From the NCBI GenBank assembly GCA_036504095.1, contig DASXVS010000002.1:118184-182183 (forward strand): a stretch of DNA of 64,000 nucleotides, given 5' to 3'. The position numbers and the translations under genes are program-made. Each line of letters begins with the position of its first letter. The first letter of the stretch is position 1. The stretch comes from Armatimonadota bacterium (GTDB taxonomy: Bacteria; Armatimonadota; DTGP01; JAKQQT01). Of the stretch, positions 4,387 to 54,850 are shown piece by piece. The notes under the pieces were generated by a model that saw only the letters and a list, made by a program, of their open reading frames with translations, was not told the DNA's origin and searched no databases.

Positions 4387-4480
4387 TTGCCTCGCGTGCC
4401 CGTGCGGATCCCGGCGGGATTTGCGGCCTTGATGGCGGTTCAGTACACAATGCATCATCAACGCGATGAGGTGTATCTCC

Positions 4481-7400
4481 ATGAAGACCGGTATGCGCTG
4501 TCTGCTCTGGTTTGCCGCGGTATTGTCCCTCTCCAGTTCGGCGTTAGCAGGTGCCCTCGAAACGGGCTTTCACTCGCCCCCTCCATCCGCCCGGCCGTGG
4601 GTCTACTGGTTCTGGCTGAACGGTAACATCACCCGGGAAGGCATCACGGCCGACCTGGAGGCGATGGAGCGCGTCGGCATCGGTGGCGTGCTGATCATGG
4701 AAGTGGACCAGGGCGCCCCCAGAGGCCCGGTCGATTTCATGGGCGCCCAATGGAGGGCATTGTTCGCCCACGCCGCATCTGAGGCGAAACGCCTCGGCCT
4801 CGAAATCAACATGAACAACGACGCGGGCTGGAACGGCAGCGGCGGCCCGTGGATCAAGCCAGAACAATCCATGCAGAAGGTGGTCTGGAGTGAAACCTCT
4901 CTCGCAGGTCCGCAGCGCTTCGAAGGGACGCTTCCCCAACCCCAGACCGTTGCCGGCTTCTACCGCGACATCGAGGTGCTCGCATTCCCGACACCCGGGC
5001 CGTACCGGATACCGGATATCCAGGTGAAGGCTGCGTATCAGGTGGGCGCGGTTGGCGCGGCGGAGGCAGCTGACCTGGCACCGGAGATGGTCATCGACAC
5101 GAAGCAGGTCACCGACATCACCTCCCGGATGGATGCGACCGGGCGAGTCAATTGGGACGTTCCTGCGGGAAATTGGACCGTCATGCGCTTCGGGCATACG
5201 AGCACCGGCGCCGTCAATGCGCCCGCCCCGGAAACCGGCCGTGGGCTTGAATGCGACAAGTTGAGCGTGGAAGGCGCCGAGGCGAATTTCGGCGGAATGA
5301 TGGCCAAACTCGTCGCGGACACCGGCTCCGCTCCCGGCAAGGCGCTGGTTGCCACGCACGTGGATAGCTGGGAGAACGGGTCGCAGAACTGGACCGCCCG
5401 CATGCGCGACGAGTTCCGGCACCGGCGCGGTTACGACCCGCTGCCGTTTCTGCCCGTGATGACCGGCCGCGTGGTCGGGAGCGCGGAGGTATCGGAACGA
5501 TTCCTATGGGATCTTCGCCGTACCATTTCCGAACTCGTCGTTCAGAACTACGCCGGACGCATCCGGGGCCTCGCCCACGCGAACGGCCTGAGATTCACCA
5601 CCGAGGCGTACGGCGGCCCGTGCGACGACCTCCCCTACGGAGGGCAGGCGGACGAACCGATGGGCGAGTTCTGGATGGGCGGAGGCTCCATCGAGACGTG
5701 CCGGGGCATGGCCTCGGCCGCGCACGTCTACGGCAAGCCCATCGTCGGGGCGGAGTCGTTCACCGCCGGCAGTGACGAGCGGTGGCTCCAACACCCCGCT
5801 TCAATCAAATCTCTCGGAGACCGCGCCTTCTGCGAGGGAATCAACCGCTTCGTCTTCCACCGTTACGCGATGCAGCCGTGGGTGGATAACCGGCGTCCCG
5901 GTATGACGATGGGCCCGTGGGGGCTTCACTACGAGCGCACACAAACGTGGTGGAACCAGTCTGCCGCGTGGCACACCTACCTCGCGCGCTGCCAGCAACT
6001 GCTGCGGCAGGGAAGATACGCGGCCGATATCTGCTACCTCCAGGCAGAGGCGCCACCGCAGGCGTTCAACGGACACAGGCCGGCCGGTTACGCCTGGGAC
6101 GAGTGCCCCGCCGAAGCCGTGCTCACACGCATGACGGTGAAGAACGGGCGCATCGTGCTGCCTGACGGGATGAGCTATCGGGTTCTGGTGCTGTCCGAGT
6201 CGCGAAACATGACGCCCGCCCTGCTGCGGAAGCTCGGCGACCTCGTGAAGGCCGGCGCAACCGTTATCGGCCCGCGTCCGCTGAAGTCGCCGAGCCTGAG
6301 CGGCTATCCGCAGTGCGATGACGAAGTGAAGCGACTGGCCGACGAAATATGGGGCGATTGCGACGGCAAAGGCGTGAAGGAGCACCGGTATGGCCTCGGG
6401 CGCGTGATATGGGGCGTCGCGCCGGAGAAGATTCTCTCTGGCTCGGGAACGGGACCGGATTTCACCGGCGGGCAGCGCCTGAACTGGATCCACCGCACTG
6501 TCGGAACCACGGAGATCTACTTCCTGGCCAACCCCCAGGCGAAGCGCGTGGCGGCAGCGTGCACGTTCCGCGTAAGCGGCAAGACGCCCGAGTTGTGGTG
6601 GCCGGAAGCTGGTCGCATCGAGCGCGCTCCGATATACCGCCTGGACAAGGGCGCTACGACCGTCCTGCTGCCGCTTGGGCCCAGCGAGTCCGTCTTCGTC
6701 GTCTTCCGGAGCGCCGCCGCGAAGAGCGACCCGGTGATGGCGGTCAAACGCGGCGGTACGACCGTGCTCTCCCTGGTGTCCGGTCCCGCGCTCCCGATCG
6801 TCGTGAAGAGAGCTTCGTACGGCGTTCTGGGTGACCCCGCCCGGACACGGGACGTCCGGGCAGAGGTTCAGCGCCTCGCTGACTCCGGCGAGCGCGAGTT
6901 TCAGGTCGCGGAAATGGCGGCCGGCGATGATCCCGCATACGGCATCGTCAAGACGCTCATCGTTGATTACACGTTAGGCGGTAAGCGGGCTACGGCCAGA
7001 GGCGTCGATCCTGAGCGCATAGACCTGGATTCATTCACGCCGGATACAGCCCCGCAGTGCGAGCTGGCCGGTTCGGGCAGCCTCGAGCGCCTCACCGTTT
7101 GGCAGCCGGGCCGATACACGGTCGTACGCGCAAGCGGCAGGGCTCAGATTCTGACCATGCCCGATGTTCCAGCTGCTTTGAGCATCGGAGGCCCATGGAC
7201 GGTCTCATTCCCGCCCGGTAACGGCGCACCGGAGAGGATTCGGCTGGAACGGTTGGCCTCTCTGTCCGACTATCCCGATCCGGGTGTGAAGTACTTCTCC
7301 GGAACGGCGGTGTGGCGCACGACAATACACGCGCCGGCCGGCGCGTTCGGCAACGGCCGCACGATGCGGCTGGAACTCGGCGACGTTCAGGTGATCGCCG

Positions 7401-10959: not shown

Positions 10960-11062
10960 GCGGAAATGATGAAATCTGAACGATGAACGATGAACGCCGA
11001 GCTTCAAAGCGGAGGGCCGGGGGAACCGGCGGCGATCCGGCGCCTGATAAGAATCAGAGGCT

Positions 11063-13169: not shown

Positions 13170-13178
13170 TGGTACAAT
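13170..13178 (+). promoter_or_regulatory. Candidate extended -10 promoter element TGgTACAAT
   Basis: TGGTACAAT about 68 nt upstream of the 13246 start; the same TGGTAYAAW word recurs upstream of brnT and of the pilin at 43312. Confidence 0.3.
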
Positions 13179-16708: not shown

Positions 16709-18145
16709 ATGGCTGTCACCGATCATTCAATCCTGCCGAAAACGCCCGCCGGGGAGATGCTCGCCCTCTGGCTGGACGCCGTGAACTCCGGCGACTTCGA
16801 GACGATCCGTCGTTTCATCAGCGAAAGCCATACCGCCGCTGCGCTGGCGACTCGCAACGCCAGGCAGCGGGCGGCGGCACGCGTGCGGACGTGGACCAAC
16901 ACGCGCGGCCTGACGGCGCGGCGGATCGTCGCGTCGAAGCCGCACGCTCTGAACGCCCTGCTGTTCGGGAACCTGGCGGAGGATTGGTGGAACGTTCGCA
17001 TCGAAGTGGAGCCGGATCCGCCGCACCACGTCAAATCACTCTCGCTCTCGCCCGCGGCCGCGCCGGACGACCTGCGCGAAGGCGGCCCGTTGTCGCCGCC
17101 CGAGATTGCCGAACGACTCGACGCCTACACCGCGAAGCTCGCAGATGCCGACATTTTCTCCGGCGCCTATCTGCTTGCGCGAAACGGCGAGGTGCTCACG
17201 GCCGGGGCACGCGGCCTCGCCAGCCGCGCGTGGAAAGTCCCAAACACCGTGCAAACCCGGTTCAACCTCGGGTCGTGCAACAAGATGTTCACCTCGGTCG
17301 CGATCCTTCAGCAGATCGAATCCGGACGGATCGCTCTGGACGACCGGATCGGCGGCATTCTGCCCGACTACCCCAACGAAGACGTGGCCGCGAACGTGAC
17401 GATCCGCCATCTGCTCACGCACACCTCGGGCCTGGGCTCGTTCTTCAACCAGCAGTTCGCGGGCGCATCGCGCGCGCGATTTCGCAAGGTCGCCGATTAT
17501 ACGCCCCTCTATGAGCGCGAGCCTCTCGAGTTCCGCCCCGGCGCGCGGTTCAGCTACAGCAACTCCGGCATGATGCTTCTGGGTGTGATCCTGGAGAAAG
17601 TGACCGGCGGTGACTACTTCGAGTACATTCGCGAGCGCATCTACGGGCCGGCCGGCATGACCCGCAGCGATTCCTACGACCTCGATGCGGACGAGGCGGA
17701 CATCGCGGTCGGCTACACCAGCACGGGCGCGGACGGTGGCCACCAATCCGGACCGCGCCGCAGCAATGTCTTCACACACATCGCCAAGGGCAGCCCCGCC
17801 GGTGGAGGTTTCTCAACGGTCGAGGACATGCTGCGTTTCGACCAGGCGCTCCGGGGCAACGTCCTGCTTAAGCCGGAGACCACCGCGCTGATGCTCACGC
17901 CGCAGGCATCAACGGACTTCGATCCGTCAGTGAAGATCGGATACGGGGTCTTTCTGGAAGAGTCGGCCGGCAAGCGCATCGCGGGCCACAGCGGCGTGTT
18001 CGCGGGCGTGAACTCGCAGTTGGACATGCACCTGGACACCGGGTTCACCGCTGTCATCCTGAGCAACTACGATCCGCCCGCCGCCAAGCGCGTGGCCCAC
18101 AAGGTGAGGGAGTGGGTGGCGGGGGGAGTGATGAATGATGAGTGA
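16709..18145 (+). CDS. Serine hydrolase, beta-lactamase/transpeptidase superfamily, with an extra N-terminal domain
   Basis: S-x-x-K motif (SCNK), YSN motif (YSNSG), HSG near the C-terminus; no signal peptide seen. Confidence 0.75.
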   Translation: MAVTDHSILPKTPAGEMLALWLDAVNSGDFETIRRFISESHTAAALATRNARQRAAARVRTWTNTRGLTARRIVASKPHALNALLFGNLAEDWWNVRIEVEPDPPHHVKSLSLSPAAAPDDLREGGPLSPPEIAERLDAYTAKLADADIFSGAYLLARNGEVLTAGARGLASRAWKVPNTVQTRFNLGSCNKMFTSVAILQQIESGRIALDDRIGGILPDYPNEDVAANVTIRHLLTHTSGLGSFFNQQFAGASRARFRKVADYTPLYEREPLEFRPGARFSYSNSGMMLLGVILEKVTGGDYFEYIRERIYGPAGMTRSDSYDLDADEADIAVGYTSTGADGGHQSGPRRSNVFTHIAKGSPAGGGFSTVEDMLRFDQALRGNVLLKPETTALMLTPQASTDFDPSVKIGYGVFLEESAGKRIAGHSGVFAGVNSQLDMHLDTGFTAVILSNYDPPAAKRVAHKVREWVAGGVMNDE

Positions 18146-18185
18146 TGAATGATGAGCGATGGACGCCCGGATTCAGGGGTTCAGT
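18128..18185. repeat. Word-repeat element copy (GATGAATGATGAG tandem words followed by CCCGGATTCAGGGG)
   Basis: GTGATGAATGATGAG x2 then CGATGGACGCCCGGATTCAGGGG; overlaps the last codons of the serine hydrolase (..VMNDE stop); related copies at 48697, 51245, 54800 and inverted copies at 19165, 51411. Confidence 0.6.
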
Positions 18186-19164: not shown

Positions 19165-19200
19165 GCTTTCATCGCTCATCGACCATCGTTCATCGTCTTC
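19165..19200. repeat. Inverted copy of the GATGAA word repeat
   Basis: CTTTCATCGCTCATCGACCATCGTTCATCG is the reverse complement of GATGAACGATGG / GATGAGCGATGAA words; lies between convergent stops. Confidence 0.55.
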
Positions 19201-21040: not shown

Positions 21041-21120
21041 TTGGCCCTCATAGAGAATTGAGGGTTGAGAATTGAGATCTGAGGGTCCGGAGTCCGGTCT
21101 CATTTCTCCATTCTCATATC

Positions 21121-21783
21121 TCAAATCTGATGCTCCCACCCCGCGGCCAGGGCGCGTCGGTTCGACTCCAGGAACTTCGGCTTCACGGTGTCCGCCAGCG
21201 CCTGCTCCCATATTTCGCGCGGCAGGCCCAGTTCCCTGCCCAGACGTCCCAGAAGCACGACGTTCGCGGCTCGGGCGTTGCCGGCTTCGCACGCGAGGCG
21301 GTCGGCGTCCATGGCGAACACCTTCCCGCGCCGTGACACCGACTTCTCGACACCCTGCGGGTATTTCGCCGTGCCAAGGATCACCGGCATTGGCGAGATG
21401 ATCTGCGTGCTCATGATAACAGCCGCATCCGGCTTCAGCATGTGCGACCAGCGCAGCGCTTCCAGTTGCTCGAAAGCCAGTATGAAATCCGCTGTTCCCG
21501 GGTCGATCGTGGGTGCGAAAATGCGGTCGCCGATTCGCACCTGGGTCACCACGGCGCCGCCGCGCTGGGCCATGCCGTGAGTTTCGGAGAACTTCACGTC
21601 TTTGCCCGCAAGTAATGCCACGCGGGACAGAATTCGCGCCGCCAGTATCGTCCCCTGCCCGCCAACACCAACAATGAGTATTGAGGTCGGGTCCAGGGCT
21701 GAGGGCTGAGGGCTGAAGGCTGGGAGAGACGCAGGTATCGGCGCGGCGCCTGAATCTTGAATCCTGGATACTGGATCCTTCAT
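21121..21783 (-). CDS. iorB: Indolepyruvate ferredoxin oxidoreductase, beta subunit (with ~25-aa repeat-derived N-terminal extension)
   Basis: ILIVGVGGQGTILAARIL core; ATG overlaps the iorA stop in an ATGA arrangement, so the extension encoded by GGGCTGAGG words is probably translated. Confidence 0.8.
   Translation of the reverse strand: MKDPVSRIQDSGAAPIPASLPAFSPQPSALDPTSILIVGVGGQGTILAARILSRVALLAGKDVKFSETHGMAQRGGAVVTQVRIGDRIFAPTIDPGTADFILAFEQLEALRWSHMLKPDAAVIMSTQIISPMPVILGTAKYPQGVEKSVSRRGKVFAMDADRLACEAGNARAANVVLLGRLGRELGLPREIWEQALADTVKPKFLESNRRALAAGWEHQI
21695..21723. repeat. GGGCTGAGG word repeat inside the iorB 5' end
   Basis: GGGCTGAGGGCTGAGGGCTGAAGGCTGGG; encodes AFSPQPSALDP on the minus strand; the same words occur at 29281 and 60800..60951. 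Confidence 0.55.
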
Positions 21784-25779: not shown

Positions 25780-27834
25780 ATGCAACCTATCGTGAACCTG
25801 TGGAACGACTCGGAGGCCGCCGCGCTCGGCGACGTCGATATCCTCGCCTATGTGTCCCGTCTGCTCGGCGCGGATCCCAGCCTCGTCGTCTGGGGTGGAG
25901 GCAACACATCCATCAAGACCAGTGAGACGGATTTCCGAGGCCGCCACGTCGCGGTGCTCCGCGTGAAAGGCAGCGGCAGCGACCTCAAGGCCGCCAAGCC
26001 CGCCGATTTCCCTGCGGTTTTCATGGACGACCTGCTGCCGCTGCTCAACCGCGGCGCGATGAACGACGAGGAGATGGTCTCGTGGGTGAACCACTCCCTC
26101 CTCGAACCGAACTCGCCGCGCCCGAGCATTGAGACGCTCCTCCACGCCTTCGTGCCCGCGAAATGCGTTCTGCACAGCCACGCTGACGCCATCGTGGCGC
26201 TCACCAACAACGAACGCGGCGAAGAGGTTATCCGCGAGGTATTCGGCGAAGACCTTGGCGTCATCCCGTACATTCGGCCCGGCTTCCGGATGTCTCAGAT
26301 GGTCGGCGAGGCAGCCCGCAAAAACCCGGCGCTGAAAGGCGTCGTCCTGATGAACCACGGGCTGGTCACATGGCATGACGACCCGCGCGAAGCCTATGCG
26401 CTGCACGTGGAAATGGCGAACCGCGCCGTTGCCGGCATCCGGCATCCTGCATTCAGCATTCAGACTCCAGAGTCCGTCCTGGATGCTGAATGCAGGATGC
26501 AGAATGCTGCGTCTCTCGCGCCGACGCTGCGCGGCCTTCTGGGCGCGGACAAGCGCGTGGTGATGCGGTACGACGACTCCGAAGATGTCCTTCGGTTCGT
26601 GAACTGGGACCGCGCGCCGGAAGCGACCCGGAAGGGCGCCGCCACGCCGGACCACATCCTCAGCAGCAAGCGCCGTCCGATGTGGGTGATCGCGGACAAC
26701 CCGGCCGACATCGAAAGCCTCCGCACCGCCGCGCGGGAAGGCCTGGAGGACTGGCACCGCGATTACCGCCAGTGGTACGAAACGTTCAACTCCGGCGAGG
26801 AAATGCTGCCGCCGTACCCCCGCGTCATACTCGTGAAGGGATTGGGCATGTTCACCGCGTGGGACAACTCGGCCAGGGCCGTTATCCCGGCGGATATCTA
26901 CCACCATACCATCTCCATCATCGAAGCGGCGGAAAGCATCGCCCCGTACCGAAGCCAGTCCGACGCCGACGCCTTCGCCTCGGAATACTGGCCGCTGGAA
27001 CTCTACAAGCTCACGCTCGCGCCGCCGGAAAAGGAACTCGCCCGGCGCGTGGCGCTGGTGACGGGCGCCGCCGGCGCGATCGGCGCGGGCATCGCGCGCA
27101 AGTTCGCCGCCGCGGGCGCACACGTAATCTGCGCCGATCTCGACCTGCCGAAAGCGCCATCGCTGGCTTCTGACATCACCGCCGCGAACAAGGCGAACCC
27201 CGCGTTGGCCGTCGAAATGGACGTCACGAGCGAGCCGTCGGTCCAGGCAGCGTTCCGGCAGATCGCTCTGGCGTACGGCGGCATCGACATTCTCGTTTCC
27301 AACGCCGGCATCGCGCATAGCTGCCCCATTGACTGTCTGGAACTCGCCGACTGGCAGCGAAGCCTCGATGTGAACGCCACCGGCCATTTCCTGGTAGCGC
27401 GCGAAGCGCTGCGGATGATGAAGCAGCAGGGGACCGGTGGAAGCCTTGTTTTCATCGCGACCAAGAATGTCACCTCGCCCGGAAAGGACTTCGCGGCCTA
27501 CAGCGCGGCGAAATCCGCCGAGGCGCAATTGGCGAAGGTTCTGGCGCTGGAGGCGGGCCCGTTCGGCATCCGCAGCAATATGGTTAATCCGGATGCGGTA
27601 TTCGAGGGCAGCGGATTATGGTCGGACGAGGTGCGGGAGCAGCGTGCGAAGGCGCAGGGTATCCGGCCGGAGGAAATCGAGGAGTTCTATCGGAAGCGCA
27701 ACATCCTGCAGGCGAACGTAACGGCCGAGGATGTGGCGGAAGCGGCGTTGTTCCTGGCATCGGACCGCAGCGCCAAGACGACGGGCGCGATGATCCCGGT
27801 TGACGGCGGGATCAAGGACGCGTTTCCTCGGTAG
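25780..27834 (+). CDS. Bifunctional rhamnulose-1-phosphate aldolase / short-chain dehydrogenase
   Basis: N-terminal class II aldolase-like domain and C-terminal SDR domain (TGAAGAIG Rossmann motif, YSAAK catalytic motif); 684 aa. Confidence 0.8.
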   Translation: MQPIVNLWNDSEAAALGDVDILAYVSRLLGADPSLVVWGGGNTSIKTSETDFRGRHVAVLRVKGSGSDLKAAKPADFPAVFMDDLLPLLNRGAMNDEEMVSWVNHSLLEPNSPRPSIETLLHAFVPAKCVLHSHADAIVALTNNERGEEVIREVFGEDLGVIPYIRPGFRMSQMVGEAARKNPALKGVVLMNHGLVTWHDDPREAYALHVEMANRAVAGIRHPAFSIQTPESVLDAECRMQNAASLAPTLRGLLGADKRVVMRYDDSEDVLRFVNWDRAPEATRKGAATPDHILSSKRRPMWVIADNPADIESLRTAAREGLEDWHRDYRQWYETFNSGEEMLPPYPRVILVKGLGMFTAWDNSARAVIPADIYHHTISIIEAAESIAPYRSQSDADAFASEYWPLELYKLTLAPPEKELARRVALVTGAAGAIGAGIARKFAAAGAHVICADLDLPKAPSLASDITAANKANPALAVEMDVTSEPSVQAAFRQIALAYGGIDILVSNAGIAHSCPIDCLELADWQRSLDVNATGHFLVAREALRMMKQQGTGGSLVFIATKNVTSPGKDFAAYSAAKSAEAQLAKVLALEAGPFGIRSNMVNPDAVFEGSGLWSDEVREQRAKAQGIRPEEIEEFYRKRNILQANVTAEDVAEAALFLASDRSAKTTGAMIPVDGGIKDAFPR
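26440..26512. repeat. Imperfect palindrome embedded in the aldolase/SDR coding sequence
   Basis: GCATCCTGCATTCAG ... CTGAATGCAGGATGC perfect 15-bp inverted repeat with flanking CATTCAG/CTGAATG words, coding for ..GIRHPAFSIQTPESVLDAECRMQNAAS.. Confidence 0.5.
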
Positions 27835-32794: not shown

Positions 32795-32860
32795 TGCAGT
32801 ACCTCCGCGCTACCTCCACGTTCCTCTGCGTCCTCCGCGTCCTCTGCGCTGAACTCCTAC
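32795..32860. repeat. CCTCCGCG / GCGTCCTC word-repeat element
   Basis: ACCTCCGCGCTACCTCCACGTTCCTCTGCGTCCTCCGCGTCCTCTGCG; reverse-complement words of the GCGGAGG family seen at 48697 and 51245. Confidence 0.5.
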
Positions 32861-33559: not shown

Positions 33560-33575
33560 GTTCCAGGAGAATTGA

Positions 33576-34019
33576 ATGTCTGACAACACACACGAATCCG
33601 CCGGTTTTCACCACCTGGCCATGAAGGTCTGGGATTTCGACGCCACCCTGTCCTTTTACCGCGAAGCGCTCGGTTTCATCCCGGCGTACTCGTGGGGCGC
33701 GGACGAACGCGCTGCCGGGGGAACCGATTCACGAGCGGCCTTCCTGGACGGAGGAAACGGGAACTACATGGAGATCTTCGCCGGCGGCAGTCGACCGCCG
33801 ACCGAGGAGCCTCCGGAAGGTGTCCTCCTACATATCGCGCTCCGCGCGCAGGATTGTGACGCCGCCCTCACACGCGCCCGCACCGCTGGAGCGAAGGTCA
33901 CGATGGAGACGGCGGACATACCGGTCGCCGGAACGCCGCCGACCACCGTCCGCATCGCCTTCATCAAGGGCCCGGACAACGAAATCATCGAGTTCTTCCA
34001 GAACGATTTGCTCCGTTAG
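33576..34019 (+). CDS. VOC-family (glyoxalase/bleomycin-resistance/dioxygenase fold) protein
   Basis: HHLAMKVWDFDATLSFYREALGF N-terminal beta-alpha-beta-beta-beta module. Confidence 0.65.
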   Translation: MSDNTHESAGFHHLAMKVWDFDATLSFYREALGFIPAYSWGADERAAGGTDSRAAFLDGGNGNYMEIFAGGSRPPTEEPPEGVLLHIALRAQDCDAALTRARTAGAKVTMETADIPVAGTPPTTVRIAFIKGPDNEIIEFFQNDLLR

Positions 34020-34085
34020 GGTATCGGGTGCGGGGTCCAGGGTCTAGCCACTCAACCCTACACCCTGGACCCCATACCCTAGACC
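34017..34085. repeat. Long imperfect GC-rich hairpin (GGGTAT / GGGGTCCAGGGT words and their complements)
   Basis: GGGTATCGGGTGCGGGGTCCAGGGTCTAG ... CTACACCCTGGACCCCATACCCTAGACCC, immediately after the VOC stop. Confidence 0.5.
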
Positions 34086-34091
34086 CTTGCC

Positions 34092-35006
34092 ATGTACGAT
34101 CAGATTGCCGCGAACAAACGGGACTCCGGATTGCTGCTCATCGGCGTGATGCTGCTTCTGCTGGGCATCGGCTACGTTTTCGCGCGCGCCGAGGGCCTTC
34201 CTGTTGAGTTCGGCCTCTTTGCCGCCGCTTGCGTCGGCGTGGTCGCGTGGTTGACGGCCTATTTTGGCGGAAGCTCGATGCTCCTCGCGGCGAGCAGCGC
34301 ACGGCAGATATCGCACGAGGACGCACCGCAGCTCTTCAATGTCGTTGAGGAGATGTCGATCGCGGCCGGGCTGCCGATGCCGAAGGTGTACATCATCGAT
34401 GACTCGGCGCCCAACGCGTTCGCCACGGGCCGCAGCCCGGAGACCGCCAGCCTCGCCATCACTACCGGCCTGCTGGAGAAACTCAGCCGCGATGAGCTTC
34501 AGGGCGTGATGGCGCACGAGATGTCGCACGTCCGCAACTTTGACACCCGGCTCATGATGCTCCTGGCCGTGCTCGTCGGCGGCATCGTGCTCGCGGCGGA
34601 CGCCTTCTGGCGCATCAGCTATTTCGGCGGCGGACGGCGGCGAGACAGGGACAGCGACGGCGGCGGGCAGTTGCAGCTGCTCTTCATGGTACTCGCGATC
34701 GCCCTGGCGATCCTGGCCCCCATCTTCGCCAAGATGCTCGAAATGGCGGTCTCCCGCCAGCGCGAATACCTGGCCGACGCCAGCGCCGCGCTCATCACTC
34801 GCTATCCGGCGGGGCTCGCCGCAGCCCTTGAAAAGATCAGCGCCGACCCCGAGCCGCTGGAGGCCGCCAATCGCGCTACCCAGCACCTCTATATCGTGAA
34901 TCCGCTCAAGGGCGCCACGCAGAAGGCCGCCGGCCTGTTCGATACCCACCCTCCCATTGAGGAGCGCGTAAGAAGGCTGCGCGCGATGGAAAGCCATCCG
35001 GCATAG
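34092..35006 (+). CDS. htpX: HtpX-like M48 membrane metalloprotease
   Basis: HEMSHV zinc motif, N-terminal TM helices, second metal-ligand region EYLADASAA. Confidence 0.8.
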   Translation: MYDQIAANKRDSGLLLIGVMLLLLGIGYVFARAEGLPVEFGLFAAACVGVVAWLTAYFGGSSMLLAASSARQISHEDAPQLFNVVEEMSIAAGLPMPKVYIIDDSAPNAFATGRSPETASLAITTGLLEKLSRDELQGVMAHEMSHVRNFDTRLMMLLAVLVGGIVLAADAFWRISYFGGGRRRDRDSDGGGQLQLLFMVLAIALAILAPIFAKMLEMAVSRQREYLADASAALITRYPAGLAAALEKISADPEPLEAANRATQHLYIVNPLKGATQKAAGLFDTHPPIEERVRRLRAMESHPA

Positions 35007-35098
35007 AGTTCCGGGTTTCGAGTTCCGGGTTCCGAGTTCCGGGTTCCGAGTTCCGGGTTCCGGGTTCAGGGTTCAGGGTTTCGGGTTCCGGATTCCGA
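35005..35098. repeat. Tandem heptamer/14-mer array (GAGTTCC GGGTTCC)n, about 13 heptamer units
   Basis: GAGTTCCGGGTTTCGAGTTCCGGGTTCCGAGTTCCGGGTTCC... directly after the htpX stop. Confidence 0.7.
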
Positions 35099-35128
35099 TC
35101 ACACGGTACGACCGGCGTCCCGCCGGTC

Positions 35129-35164
35129 ATTCACCCGGTGGGCCCGCAATCAATCTCCCACCGG
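35129..35164. repeat. Perfect 11-bp stem hairpin inside the structured intergenic element
   Basis: CACCCGGTGGG (14-nt loop) CCCACCGGGTG. Confidence 0.5.
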
Positions 35165-35270
35165 GTGCGCTTCGCGCTTGTTGTCGACGAGTTTCTTTGC
35201 TCCGCTCAGAATGACAAAGGCCAGGACCCTCCGCACCTTTCCCCGTGTTAGGCCTATATTGAGACGTAAG

Positions 35271-35300
35271 GCTCGGAACCCGGAACTCGAAACTCGAAAC
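35271..35300. repeat. Inverted partial copy of the 35005 heptamer array
   Basis: CGGAACCCGGAACTCGAAACTCGAAACCC is the reverse complement of the array start (17 nt identical). Confidence 0.6.
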
Positions 35301-35306
35301 CCAAAC

Positions 35307-36620
35307 ATGCCCAAACACGAATACAACGGCGCGCTCATAACCGCCATCGAACCCGGCAGCATCGCCGATGAAGCCGGCTTGGAACCGGGCGACCGCATCC
35401 TCAAGATCAACGGCGAGGAACTGCGGGACGTTCTGGACTACCAGATGCACGCCTATGACGAAGACGTGGACCTGGAGGTCGCGCGCGGCGACCAGGCCGA
35501 ACTCATCCAGATCGAGAAATACGCCGGCGAGGGACTCGGCCTGGAACTGGGCGATGTGGTGTTTGACGGCGTCAAGCAGTGCACCAACCGCTGCGTTTTC
35601 TGTTTCATCCATCAGAACCCGAAGGGCATGCGCGAGACCATCTGGGTGAAGGACGATGATTACCGCCTCTCCTTCCTGGAGGGCCATTTCGTCACGCTCA
35701 CGAATCTGTCCGATGTCGAATGGCGCCGCATCGTGGACGAGCGGATGTCGCCGATGCGGGTCAGCGTTCACGCCACGGACCCGGCCGTGCGGCAGAAGAT
35801 GATCCTCCACAAAAACGCCGGCAAGGTGATGGAGCAGATCCGGGAACTCGTTTCGGTCGGCATCACGGTCCACTGCCAGGTGGTCCTGTGCCCCGGCTGG
35901 AACGACGGCGAGGTGCTGCGCCGCACGGTCTATGATCTCGCCCCGTTGTACCCGGGCGTGGAATCGCTGGCCATCGTGCCCGTGGGCCTCACGAAATACC
36001 GCAAGAACCTGCCGGACCTCGTTCCCGTAACCCCGGAGATAGCGCGCGACGTCATCAAGACGGTTGGCGGCTACCAGCGCGATCTCAAGCGCACCATCGG
36101 CAGCCGCTTCGTTTATCTGGGCGATGAGTTCTACCTCCAGGCCGGGATTGCGCTTCCGAAATACACGGAGTACGAAGGCTATCCGGCTCTGGATGACGGC
36201 GTGGGAACGTGCCGCTGGTGGGACCATCGTTGGCGCAACGCCCGCAAGAACCTGCCGGAAGGCATCGCCAAGCCGCGCCGCGTAACGGTTGTGACCGGCG
36301 AAATGGCCGGGCCGTTCCTCCAGAAATCGGTGGACCGCCTGAACGAGATCGCGAACGTGGATGCAACTCTAATCCCGGTGAAAAACGAGTTCTACGGAGG
36401 CGGCATCAATGTGGCCGGCCTCGTCACCGGATCGGACATCGTCACCGCCCTTGCCGGGACGGATGTGGGACAGGAGACGATCGTGCCGGAGATCATGGTC
36501 CGCCAGGGCCGCTTCCTCGACGACGTGACGCTGGAGGACATTCAAAGGGCCACCGGCCGCCCGGTCCGCGTGGTAAGCACGGATCCCGCCGGCCTCATCG
36601 ATGGGGTGTTAGGACTGTGA
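35307..36620 (+). CDS. PDZ-domain radical-SAM-like protein with DUF512-type C-terminal region
   Basis: PDZ-like GSIADEAGLEPGDRILKING; CTNRCVFC (C-x3-C-x2-C) radical-SAM cluster motif; 437 aa. Confidence 0.65.
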   Translation: MPKHEYNGALITAIEPGSIADEAGLEPGDRILKINGEELRDVLDYQMHAYDEDVDLEVARGDQAELIQIEKYAGEGLGLELGDVVFDGVKQCTNRCVFCFIHQNPKGMRETIWVKDDDYRLSFLEGHFVTLTNLSDVEWRRIVDERMSPMRVSVHATDPAVRQKMILHKNAGKVMEQIRELVSVGITVHCQVVLCPGWNDGEVLRRTVYDLAPLYPGVESLAIVPVGLTKYRKNLPDLVPVTPEIARDVIKTVGGYQRDLKRTIGSRFVYLGDEFYLQAGIALPKYTEYEGYPALDDGVGTCRWWDHRWRNARKNLPEGIAKPRRVTVVTGEMAGPFLQKSVDRLNEIANVDATLIPVKNEFYGGGINVAGLVTGSDIVTALAGTDVGQETIVPEIMVRQGRFLDDVTLEDIQRATGRPVRVVSTDPAGLIDGVLGL

Positions 36621-37058
36621 CGCGGCCACAAAGGGATCGATGAAGCGCACTCCCTCGACGGTGCGGTCGTTTTGGAAGTCTTCGCTGTAAAGCACCGTGG
36701 CGCCAGCTTCTCTGGCTGCTGCCCAGATGAGCGCATCCCAGAAGGAGAAGCCATAATTGGGCATCGCATCCAGGGCAAGAAAAGTCAGCGATGCTGTCAG
36801 CGGGACTACGGTGGCAGCGCTCGCAAGAAGGTAGACCATTTCGCTCGCCACCGTGTGGCTAAGTGCCGGCGGCTTCATCGGACGCGTAGCGACCGAGTAG
36901 AACTCATTCAGAACCTGCACGCTCACCACAAGGGAACCGCTATCGCGGAGCAGTTCCAATAACGCGAGGGCCGCGTCGTGTTTGGCCCCGGCGTCCGGAT
37001 CAGCCGAGTAGACCAGGACATTGGTGTCAACGAAGCTCGCGTTTGCGGTCGGCCACAC
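36609..37058 (-). CDS. vapC: PIN-domain toxin (VapC-like)
   Basis: FVDTNVLVY with the conserved Asp at the N-terminus and later acidic residues; overlaps the upstream small gene. Confidence 0.75.
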   Translation of the reverse strand: MWPTANASFVDTNVLVYSADPDAGAKHDAALALLELLRDSGSLVVSVQVLNEFYSVATRPMKPPALSHTVASEMVYLLASAATVVPLTASLTFLALDAMPNYGFSFWDALIWAAAREAGATVLYSEDFQNDRTVEGVRFIDPFVAASQS

Positions 37059-37290
37059 GATCGTGAATCTCCTCGCGAGTGGGGTATGGCGGCCCCCCGA
37101 GGGGAACCCCCTGCCTGAAACGGCCTATCAACCGCTCTAGCGCTTCTCGACGCTCGGCTGGGCCCACTTCGGCCGACTGCGCGAACGTCACCAGGACACG
37201 GGCATCGTCCCGGGCGAAACTTGGCTTCTCGTCCAACTCGACCTTGCCGTCTCGGTATGTGCCTTCCACTGTCAGCAGTCCCATGGGCAA
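37027..37290 (-). CDS. Putative antitoxin (VapB-like)
   Basis: 87-aa ORF overlapping the vapC start by 32 nt; assignment by position and size. Confidence 0.5.
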   Translation of the reverse strand: MPMGLLTVEGTYRDGKVELDEKPSFARDDARVLVTFAQSAEVGPAERREALERLIGRFRQGVPLGGPPYPTREEIHDRVADRKRELR

Positions 37291-47530: not shown

Positions 47531-48007
47531 TCATCGTTCTTCGTTCAGCGTTTGCGTGGGCAGGGGGTTCGTCATCCCCTCGGGAACGAGCTCATTGGCG
47601 AACTCGATGACCTTGTCGTCGTTCAATTCGGCGTCATCGTACCCGTTCCACTTCTCCAGGCTCCAGATCTCGGCCACGTTGCCGTTGCCGATAACCACCA
47701 CGTCGCCCTGGATTTCCGCCTTGTCCCGAAGGTATTTCGGAATCAGCACCCGTCCCGCCTCATCCGGCGTCACTTCGGTGGCGGCGCCCATATAGAACCG
47801 CCGCAAAGCGAGGGCCTTCTTATCGGTGTCGGCGATCCGGCCCAGTTTGTCGAGGATCGTCTGCCACTGAGCCGGCGGGTAGAGCGCGATGCAGCCGCTG
47901 AACCCGCGCGTCAGGACGTAGGGCGCCTCGAACGCCTCCCGTAATTTCACGGGAAGAACGAGGCGACCCTTGCTGTCCAGGTTGTGGGTTGTGGAGCCGG
48001 AATACAT
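47531..48007 (-). CDS. mraZ: Transcriptional regulator MraZ
   Basis: LDSKGRLVLPVKLR and a second half VVVIGNGNVAEIWSLEKW; duplicated MraZ/SpoVT-AbrB-like halves; 158 aa. Confidence 0.8.
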   Translation of the reverse strand: MYSGSTTHNLDSKGRLVLPVKLREAFEAPYVLTRGFSGCIALYPPAQWQTILDKLGRIADTDKKALALRRFYMGAATEVTPDEAGRVLIPKYLRDKAEIQGDVVVIGNGNVAEIWSLEKWNGYDDAELNDDKVIEFANELVPEGMTNPLPTQTLNEER

Positions 48008-48696: not shown

Positions 48697-48757
48697 GATG
48701 AAGCCGGATTCACCGCGGAGGACGCAGGGGAACGCGGAGGTCGCGCGGAGGAATCAG
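48697..48757. repeat. Dispersed word-repeat element copy (GATGAAGCCGGATTCACCGCGGAGG...)
   Basis: About 88% identical over 43 nt to the copy at 51245..51297. Confidence 0.65.
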
Positions 48758-48863
48758 TAGGACGGGCGTCTCGCCCGCTACCGGGAAAACTTAGCAGGGC
48801 CAATCAAAAGGCGAAACGCGCCCACCGGAAAGGCGCAATCCGGCTCAGCACTTCGGTCAGTAC

Positions 48864-51224: not shown

Positions 51225-51244
51225 CTGGGAAACGATGAATGATG

Positions 51245-51297
51245 TGCGACGAACGATGAAACCGGATTCAGCGCGGAGGATGCAGAGGTAACGCGGA
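51245..51297. repeat. Dispersed word-repeat element copy (direct orientation)
   Basis: CGATGAATGATGTGCGACGAACGATGAAACCGGATTCAGCGCGGAGGATGCAGAGGTAACGCGGAG. Confidence 0.65.
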
Positions 51298-51360
51298 GCA
51301 ATCCCTGACCCAGCGCTGAGCCGTGGGGCCAGCCCCACGTCCGCGGGCGGAAATGGCACT

Positions 51361-51477
51361 AATAGATTCCTCCGTGCACCTCCGTGTGCTCAGTGTCCTC
51401 CGTGGTGAAATTCTCCGCGTTACCTCTGCGTCCCGCTGCGTCCTCCGCGGTGAAGTCGGGAACCTCCGCGTTGAATC
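51361..51477. repeat. Inverted copies of the CGGAGG word-repeat element
   Basis: CTCCGCGTTACCTCTGCGTCC...CCTCCGCGTTGAATCCG is the reverse complement of the 51245 copy; together they bracket the convergent junction with a CGTGGGGC..GCCCCACG mini-hairpin between. Confidence 0.65.
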
Positions 51478-51483
51478 CGAACC

Positions 51484-54783: not shown

Positions 54784-54850
54784 CTATGAGTATAGGGAAC
54801 GAAGCGATGAATGATGAACGATGGGCGATGAATAGCGGAGGCGGATTGAG
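54784..54850. repeat. Diverged copy of the GATGAA/CGGAGG word-repeat element
   Basis: GAACGAAGCGATGAATGATGAACGATGGGCGATGAATAGCGGAGGCGGATTGAGC. Confidence 0.55.

Follow-up and report, generated by a model that had tools for sequence, protein, structure and literature searches.

Tandem arrays of 7-nt units, repeated 2-26 times and strongly intergenic, are known from Xanthomonas (GGGAATC) and Nostoc (GGGGA(C/T)T) (Rehm et al. 2015, PLoS One, PMC4692102). According to this survey, the coding strand bears their G-rich version where they follow a stop codon within 50 bp (overlap included), or their C-rich version where they precede a start codon within 50 bp. The repeats are rare between divergent genes and form 70-75 convergent pairs per genome. 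Length and sequence differ between close species, the type (single or pair) is usually kept, and there is no tie to mobile elements or surface genes and no established function (PMC4692102). In Nostoc, heptamer repeats are reported to affect recF/recO expression (bioRxiv 10.1101/2022.06.06.494920). Here we describe arrays of this kind in a 64,000-nt stretch of DNA (the window) from an uncultured Armatimonadota bacterium (GenBank assembly GCA_036504095.1, contig DASXVS010000002.1), with a focus on the spacer between htpX and a downstream radical-SAM gene. This spacer has one heptamer array (A) directly after the htpX stop codon and a second, inverted array (A') directly before the next start codon. 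It is not a discrete element, but one locus of a class of repeats that occupy the spaces between genes throughout an Armatimonadota lineage. We think it fairly probable that the class is one of lineage-wide hypervariable intergenic heptanucleotide arrays, and that the locus is a convergent pair like the Xanthomonas GGGAATC pairs, working as an intercistronic stem of the type formed by repetitive extragenic palindromic (REP) sequences and bacterial interspersed mosaic elements (BIMEs), and is neither a mobile element nor an RNA gene.

Among known systems, the Xanthomonas/Nostoc class is the best match to the arrays in the window. Tandem 7-nt units, an excess of period 7, an intergenic bias, the strand rule at stop and start codons, and convergent pairs are all found here. 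Unlike that class, which has a single consensus, the genome studied here uses several unrelated unit families, most units of the window are not capable of forming a G-quadruplex (G4), and several pairs fill the entire gap from stop to start codon. The host, an uncultured Armatimonadota lineage, also differs.

The short tandemly repeated repetitive sequences (STRRs) of heterocystous cyanobacteria are reportedly heptamers of three families. The TAACTGA repeats of Beggiatoaceae, Cyanobacteria and Bacteroidetes are intergenic heptamers of patchy distribution, often found just upstream of start codons without a Shine-Dalgarno motif, and a post-transcriptional role has been proposed for them, without proof (MacGregor 2015, PMC4679880). 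Like TAACTGA repeats and STRRs, the window arrays are intergenic, often lie before starts that lack a Shine-Dalgarno motif, and are lineage-specific. Unlike the window pairs, TAACTGA sets have a single unit sequence, are nearly always direct (1 inverted among 170; PMC4679880), and have no complementary partner array behind the stop codon of the gene before. Geobacter metallireducens has heptanucleotide multicopy elements (GGGACCG x4 at 49 sites, and MTYCTGA x5 sites as strand-switching pairs), some of them inside genes, that have been labelled putative regulatory only (PMC2700814). Each Geobacter family has one consensus, unlike the window arrays, and turnover or compensatory change was not reported in PMC2700814. 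Shared with the window are 4-5 tandem heptamers, many copies per genome and some inverted pairs.

REP/BIME hairpins at gene 3' ends or between cistrons are said to shield the message upstream of them against 3' exonucleases and, if they lie near a stop codon, to be able to hinder terminating ribosomes. The REPs of enterobacteria have a conserved consensus of ~35 nt and are spread by REP-associated tyrosine transposases (RAYTs). Unlike them, the stems in the window are built from tandem 7-mers, with units that differ by locus and no shared consensus (RAYT genes were not searched for). For the window stems, the REP/BIME-type intercistronic hairpin is the closest functional analogy.

Organization of the htpX-radical-SAM spacer

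The window sequence is identical to contig Ga0376481_000140 of JGI metagenome 3300035523, from which the Pfam calls were taken, and NCBI assigns its HtpX and radical-SAM proteins to an Armatimonadota metagenome-assembled genome. The parts of the locus, all on the plus strand, are as follows.

34092-35006, plus strand: htpX open reading frame (Pfam Peptidase_M48 on the identical JGI gene call)
35004-35006, plus strand: htpX stop codon TAG, the G of which is base 1 of the first heptamer unit
35006-35098, plus strand: array A, 13 tandem heptamers, GRGTTYC in sense orientation, starting with the last base of the stop codon (Tandem Repeats Finder, TRF; repeat finding)
35110-35128, plus strand: perfect 8-bp GC-rich hairpin GACCGGCG-TCC-CGCCGGTC, with CACACGGTA just before it (sequence, fold)
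35132-35142 and 35157-35167, plus strand: perfect 11-bp stem CACCCGGTGGG/CCCACCGGGTG with a 14-nt loop (repeat finding)
35221-35261, plus strand: conserved block CCAGGACCCTCCGCACC-N5-CCCGTGTTAGGCCTATATTG, with a -10-like TATATT at 35255-35260 (MAFFT alignment of four orthologous spacers)
35272-35305, plus strand: array A', ~5 C/A-rich heptamers, reverse complement of array A (repeat finding; TRF 35277-35306)
35307-36620, plus strand: gene for a protein with PDZ, radical SAM and DUF512 domains (Pfam PDZ, Radical_SAM_2 and DUF512 on the identical JGI gene call; homologues)

From the htpX stop codon to the ATG at 35307 the spacer measures 300 nt. The heptamer array that had been pointed out in the original prediction is real (TRF at 35008-35097, period 7, 12.9 copies, 84% matches, score 124). 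Its units are GAGTTCC and GGGTTCC, with the variants GGGTTTC, GGGTTCA and GGATTCC, and units 1-8 alternate between GAG and GGG. The inverted copy of the array start is also real. A' can be read as CTCGGAA CCCGGAA CTCGAAA CTCGAAA CCCAAA and is complementary to the start of array A over 29 nt at 93%, or over 34 nt at 85%, with the arms 235 nt apart. The perfect 11-bp stem exists as described, although at coordinates that are 3 nt to the right of those first assigned to it, and a second perfect hairpin, the 8-bp one, had been missed.

A' spans positions -35 to -2 of the radical-SAM gene and ends 1 nt 5' of its ATG. In a scan of upstream regions, this gene had no Shine-Dalgarno motif, the place of which is taken by A'. 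Motifs of this type precede about half of the other genes of the window and are found ahead of neither htpX nor the radical-SAM gene. The 326-nt region folds better than dinucleotide shuffles on both strands (z = -5.7 on the plus strand, -5.3 on the minus strand), and the predicted long-range A/A' stem encloses all other parts of the spacer.

The scan for intrinsic terminators in 35007-35306 was negative, and there is no T run after 35128, 35167 or 35305. An intrinsic (rho-independent) terminator was therefore rejected, as the scan was negative and the stems have no U tract following them. The 8-bp hairpin is a candidate htpX 3'-end hairpin, without a U tract. A scan for promoters called none in the spacer, with the reservation that the consensus used is of the E. 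coli type.

Two minus-strand genes are convergent on the radical-SAM gene: a PIN-domain (VapC-like) gene (36609-37058), which shares 12 nt with its 3' end, and, upstream of the PIN-domain gene, a small gene (37027-37290). No heptamer array follows the radical-SAM gene here, perhaps because of this overlap; in the related contig L001 an array is present at this place (7153-7256).

The orthologous spacer in related lineages

Syntenic relatives were found by HtpX protein search (HtpX identity 88% for L168, 87% for L163, 85% for L164 and 83% for L165). Including the window, complete spacers were available for four lineages.

Window: 300 nt; array A with 13 units; pre-ATG array A' complementary to A
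L165 (83%): 187 nt; array A with 8 units; A' with 6 units, forming a 40-bp A/A' stem flush with TAG and ATG; additional (GAGGGCT)n array
L164 (85%): 256 nt; array A with 6 units; pre-ATG array (CCCAACA)n, non-complementary to A
L163 (87%): 454 nt; array A with 0 units; local (TGAGAAT)/(ATTCTCA) hairpin in the leader

The suggestion that array A is a variable-number tandem repeat is thus borne out between lineages, with 13, 8, 6 and 0 units. The inverted partner A' is present in 2 of the 4 lineages: L164 has the array together with a pre-ATG array that cannot pair with it, and L163 has neither. The original prediction had named an array that varies or is missing without its partner in relatives as grounds for its own refutation, and this is what the relatives show. 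The TAG-G junction, in which the stop codon shares its G with the array, is common to L164 and L165. In L163 the htpX stop codon is directly followed by CACACGGTA and a different hairpin, and then by an array of 9-mers (see below). In L168, GGGTTCCGAG lies within the end of the coding sequence, and the contig ends 3 nt past the htpX stop codon. The 11-bp hairpin is specific to the lineage of the window, with no counterpart in L163, L164 or L165, so that the structural conservation across homologous loci that had been proposed as a check was not found for it.

The sole conserved piece of the spacer is a block of ~45 nt (window 35221-35261), which matches L165 over 35 nt at 89% by BLAST. Its -10-like box reads TATATT in the window and TATAGT or TATGAT in the relatives, and its motif occurs once in the window. 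From this conservation we infer that the block is a promoter or operator of the downstream gene.

Similar turnover affects a neighboring gap, between the LemA and glyoxalase genes. In the window this gap (33560-33575) has 16 nt with a Shine-Dalgarno motif; in L165 (850-945) an inverted (GTTTCTA)/(TAGAAAC) pair stands between the stop codon and the retained Shine-Dalgarno motif, and in L163 (2900-2975) there is a single (GAGGGCT)x6 array. This is array gain or loss at orthologous gaps among close relatives.

L082, the only other assembly from this strain, agrees with the window at 100% identity, and its contig ends inside the array, at window position 35064. Together with the contig end in L168, at the place where an array would start, this break suggests that heptamer arrays fragment short-read metagenome assemblies; the arrays may be length-polymorphic.

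The sister hairpin between the glyoxalase gene and htpX

The gap upstream of htpX consists entirely of a second inverted pair of arrays.

34020-34091 (34017-34094 with both codons), plus strand: inverted heptamer hairpin that makes up the whole 72-nt gap, flush with TAG and ATG (fold -44.8 kcal/mol)

This sister hairpin is built from 4 GGGNNNN units, a loop and 4-5 NNNNCCC units, with no Shine-Dalgarno motif. It is present in all 4 lineages with a complete gap, always with 4 units in the 5' arm, the same register relative to the stop codon, a strictly symmetric stem and a gap of 72-80 nt, while the arms are only 36-64% identical between lineages. A shortened version is carried by L168, the 88% relative. 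Over the 4 lineages, 107 of 124 cells are paired; shifting the partner by 1-3 nt leaves 45-61. Double-sided compensatory change was seen in 17 of 31 columns, and GG at unit positions 1-2 is invariant. Judged from these alignments, the stems of the heptamer class appear to be maintained.

Period-7 arrays across the window

We ran one and the same detector over the whole window, and the census of period-7 arrays was made in its 64 kb plus the contigs of the relatives. The window contains 11 arrays of period 7, versus 0-2 for each other period from 4 to 12. Because period 7 dominates in this way, and because the htpX-radical-SAM spacer folds so much better than shuffled sequence, a chance origin is excluded. 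Seven of the 11 arrays are intergenic, in a window with 9.5% intergenic DNA (~17-fold enrichment), and 1 of the other 4 overlaps a gene 3' end. The units fall into at least six families (GRGTTCC, GATGAAY, GAGGGCT, GAGAATT, GCATTCA and GGGTNNN). Inverted pairs, with units that are specific to each locus, start at 21053/21098, 26431/26479, 34020/34058, 35006/35272 and 60798/60914. Besides the A/A' pair, they are the following.

21053-21130: inverted pair GAGAATT/AATTCTC
26431-26507: inverted pair GCATTCA/TGAATGC
34020-34091: inverted pair GGGTNNN/NNNACCC (the sister hairpin)
60798-60955: inverted pair TGAGGGC/GCCCTCA

A polarity rule is kept at 11 of 12 loci in the window: at a stop codon or just past it the sense strand has the G- or purine-rich version, and just ahead of a start codon it has the complement. 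The exception in the window is the pair at 26431, which is inside an open reading frame; among the relatives, an array in L169 (6354-6393) has its C-rich strand after the stop codon. Arrays were found between co-directional and between convergent genes, and in none of the 6 divergent gaps of the window.

The GATGAAY family is found at six loci (10969-10997, 18125-18161, 19169-19196, 47531-47552, 51232-51262 and 54805-54832). It is on the sense strand at or just after the stop codon at 5 of these; at 54805, its pyrimidine-rich complement is just upstream of a minus-strand start. The TGA stop codon lies inside the GATGAAY array at 18143-18145 and 47531-47533, and inside a TGAGATA/TGAGAAT array at 21121-23. 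Tandem units with TGA provide stops in all three frames. A TGA in every post-stop unit was considered as a general rule and rejected, as it is true of GATGAAY, GAGGGCT and GAGAATT and fails for GRGTTCC, GGGTNNN and AGTCGTC (the last in L001/L169).

The pair at 26431-26507, (CCGGCAT/TCAGCAT)n followed by (CTGAATG/CAGGATG)n, is in frame within an open reading frame of 684 aa (25780-27834) with an Aldolase_II domain (residues 22-214) and a short-chain dehydrogenase domain (residues 423-678). It encodes residues ~218-243, directly after the aldolase domain, and its polarity is opposite to that of the intergenic pairs.

Between two convergent genes (60795-60952), a pair of inverted (TGAGGGC)n arrays directly abuts the stop codon on either side (60792-94 and 60953-55) and encloses three local GC-rich hairpins. 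The region folds at -99 kcal/mol and looks like a bidirectional 3'-end structure. A second repeat class consists of 9-mer arrays GCGGAGGNN (complement CCTCCGCNN), found at 32802-32850, 48704-48760, and 51262-51300 with 51375-51475, as well as in L163 at 4450-4510. They often adjoin the motif CCGGATTCA (18167, 48704, 51262, 60886). In the space between two convergent genes (51225-51483) they build a long inverted structure with a fold of -121.5 kcal/mol.

A -10-like TACAAT box is located ~8 nt 5' of the ATG at 1616 (region 1590-1618), with similar boxes near 13172, 37666 and 63437. The closeness of the box to the ATG at 1616 suggests a leaderless mRNA.

Distribution of the arrays in the clade

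Period-7 arrays of this class are present in the related Armatimonadota contigs L001, L169, L163, L164 and L165 (L169 and L170 are the same sequence). The nearest genome match, an Armatimonadota metagenome-assembled genome with 75% identity of the radical-SAM protein, likewise has heptamers arranged as inverted pairs, made of different units (AGTCGTC, CGGATTC and GTCAGCC). In the L001/L169 genome, the orientation of AGTCGTC relative to genes is consistent at 4 of 4 loci.

Period-7 arrays were absent from the more distant L171, L175, L083 and L134. The more distant Armatimonadota contigs without heptamer arrays comprise 71% and 67% relatives, a Chthonomonadales contig and two short metagenome contigs; Latescibacterota and Chloroflexia loci have none either. 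Scans of genomes and metagenomes with the radical-SAM protein gave mostly distant Firmicutes and Latescibacterota loci without arrays. The heptamer arrays are a clade-specific burst. A literature search for heptamer repeats in Armatimonadetes found nothing relevant.

Discussion

The arrays expand, contract and are replaced between close relatives, as expected from slipped-strand mispairing. At the same time, arrays of the class strongly favor intergenic DNA and keep a set orientation to the genes beside them, and where arms abut, complementarity is kept through compensatory change. By analogy with REP/BIME hairpins, convergent arrays that are flush with stop and start codons probably act as an intercistronic stem. 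In a transcript reading through from htpX, A would pair with A' over ~30 bp (40 bp in L165), and the resulting stem would loop out the 235-nt spacer and mask the leader of the downstream gene, with its missing Shine-Dalgarno motif. Transcription initiated at the internal promoter-like block would yield RNA with A' as its sole arm, an unstructured C/A-rich leader. The stem may then shield the 3' end of the upstream message or serve in its processing, and translation of the second cistron may be tied or limited by it, as in REP/BIME-type arrangements. The two GC-rich hairpins between the arrays probably mark the htpX 3' end.

Several observations weigh against the proposal of an intercistronic stem. 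At the htpX-radical-SAM spacer, A and A' can pair in only 2 of 4 lineages, and the pairing is dispensable for that reason. Conservation is the sole basis of the promoter assignment, and the E. coli-type scan calls no promoter. G.U pairs are rare in the sister hairpin (3 of 107 paired cells), the overall mismatch counts (14 G.U, 6 A.C, 12 other) are too few and too mixed to tell which strand pairs as RNA, and plus and minus strands fold equally well, with no strand-specific RNA signature. Given the few G.U pairs and the lack of strand bias, homogenization of the arms at the DNA level by template switching would fit too. A DNA cruciform, or no pairing at all, would be alternatives to pairing in RNA. 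Finally, the count of arrays in divergent gaps (0 of 6) falls short of statistical significance in a stretch of 64 kb.

A bolder version of the stem proposal appears improbable to us. In this version, the heptamer hairpins would be under selection throughout the lineage for looping out the whole spacer, with stop and start codons brought to the base of one helix, for a shunt-like coupling of termination and reinitiation in place of initiation led by a Shine-Dalgarno motif. Six stems do run from within the stop codon to a point 3-5 nt short of an ATG that lacks such a motif. A ribosome that terminates there would open the helix at its base and reinitiate on the far side, and the 7-nt register would let the stem re-pair stepwise. 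If true, bacteria would have here a counterpart of shunt-like termination-reinitiation coupling.

A neutral origin is doubtful in our view, though it deserves to be taken seriously. The arrays would then be by-products of 7-nt slippage and of template switching at quasi-palindromes by the replication or repair machinery, surviving where they are harmless, after stop codons and in gaps without promoters. Fast turnover between relatives at 83-88% HtpX identity (0-13 units, unit replacement, loss of the partner) is in line with this, as are the almost pure Watson-Crick stems with very few G.U pairs and no strand bias, the confinement of the burst to one clade, and the slippage hypothesis of Mrazek as quoted in PMC4692102. 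However, the sister hairpin keeps 4 units per arm, the stop-codon register, invariant GG/CC and its length in 4 lineages, and pairing that persists through the 17 compensatory columns of 31 while the arms diverge counts against pure slippage debris. Flush contact with both stop and start codons also speaks against a neutral origin, and so does the consistent orientation of unit families to genes (GATGAAY in sense after stop codons at 5 loci; AGTCGTC at 4/4 in L001/L169). The same invariant GG, with drift at unit positions 3-7, would suit an array read by a protein that recognizes a motif of 7-nt periodicity, be it a nucleoid or regulatory protein on DNA or S1, Csp or a CsrA-like protein on RNA, with the inverted layout as a secondary matter. 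Pre-start arrays do take the place of the Shine-Dalgarno region, a comparable idea has been put forward for the TAACTGA repeats of Beggiatoaceae (PMC4679880), and the reported effect on recF/recO expression in Nostoc points the same way. Against this, the many unrelated units per genome are too varied for a single sequence-specific binder, no candidate protein was identified, and compensatory change in both arms favors pairing over sequence read-out, and we give protein binding only a slim chance. G-quadruplexes have been proposed for the Xanthomonas GGGAATC repeats, and a G4 folded by the G-rich array, whether in the non-template DNA strand or in mRNA, could pause RNA polymerase or ribosomes. 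(GGGAATC)4 folds to a G4 in vitro (PMC4692102), array A contains a canonical G3N4 x4 motif at 35055-35078, and 5 of the 11 G4 motifs of the window fall in heptamer arrays. Yet the orthologous arrays of L165 and L164 have no G4 motif, most unit families are incapable of forming one (GATGAAY, GAGAATT, GCATTCA; GGAGACA in L164), and GAG alternates with GGG in units 1-8 of array A. A G4 is thus unlikely as the conserved role of the arrays, and as an explanation of this locus we consider it very improbable.

The original prediction had taken 35005-35300 as one unit, either a miniature inverted-repeat element or a small structured RNA, and we now give this hardly any credence. The inverted ends of 29-34 nt around a structured core do have such an appearance. 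However, these terminal inverted repeats are tandem heptamer arrays of a genome-wide class, with units that differ by locus, and array A, the hairpins and A' come and go independently in L163, L164 and L165. Further copies were sought in the window and in ~110 kb of contigs from nine related loci, and target-site duplications at the two ends of the unit, and none were found: the 173-nt core (35099-35271) has no second copy there by BLAST, the only match being the orthologous promoter-like block, and the flanks CCGGCATA (left) and CATGCCCA (right) form no direct repeat. As for an RNA gene, Rfam gave 0 matches at gathering thresholds (microRNA-hairpin noise only at E <= 5), and neither the 11-bp hairpin nor the long stem is kept across the four orthologous loci. 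An RNA thermometer for the heat-shock gene htpX was also rejected, as the stems (-45 to -52 kcal/mol) are far too stable and the same architecture is found beside unrelated genes. With regard to phase variation by simple sequence repeats, array A is upstream and A' downstream of the -10-like box, both are outside open reading frames, and the flanking genes are housekeeping genes (from the sequence of one strain only).

In practical terms, arrays of this class may break short-read assemblies and may be mistaken for mobile elements or RNA genes. Heptanucleotide arrays have for decades been an oddity of cyanobacteria, Xanthomonas, Geobacter and Beggiatoaceae, without an established function, and Armatimonadota adds a phylum to this list. 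The loci described here are concrete sites at which effects of arrays on transcript ends and on downstream translation can be tested. Relative to the published surveys (PMC4692102, PMC2700814, PMC4679880), the comparative evidence that an array-built hairpin is maintained by compensatory change while its unit drifts is new. The hairpin between the glyoxalase gene and htpX is kept through 17 compensatory columns, whereas the htpX-radical-SAM gap next to it swaps copy number and partner freely. This contrast between two adjacent gaps argues that at least some of the arrays are maintained as stems, and are not pure slippage debris.

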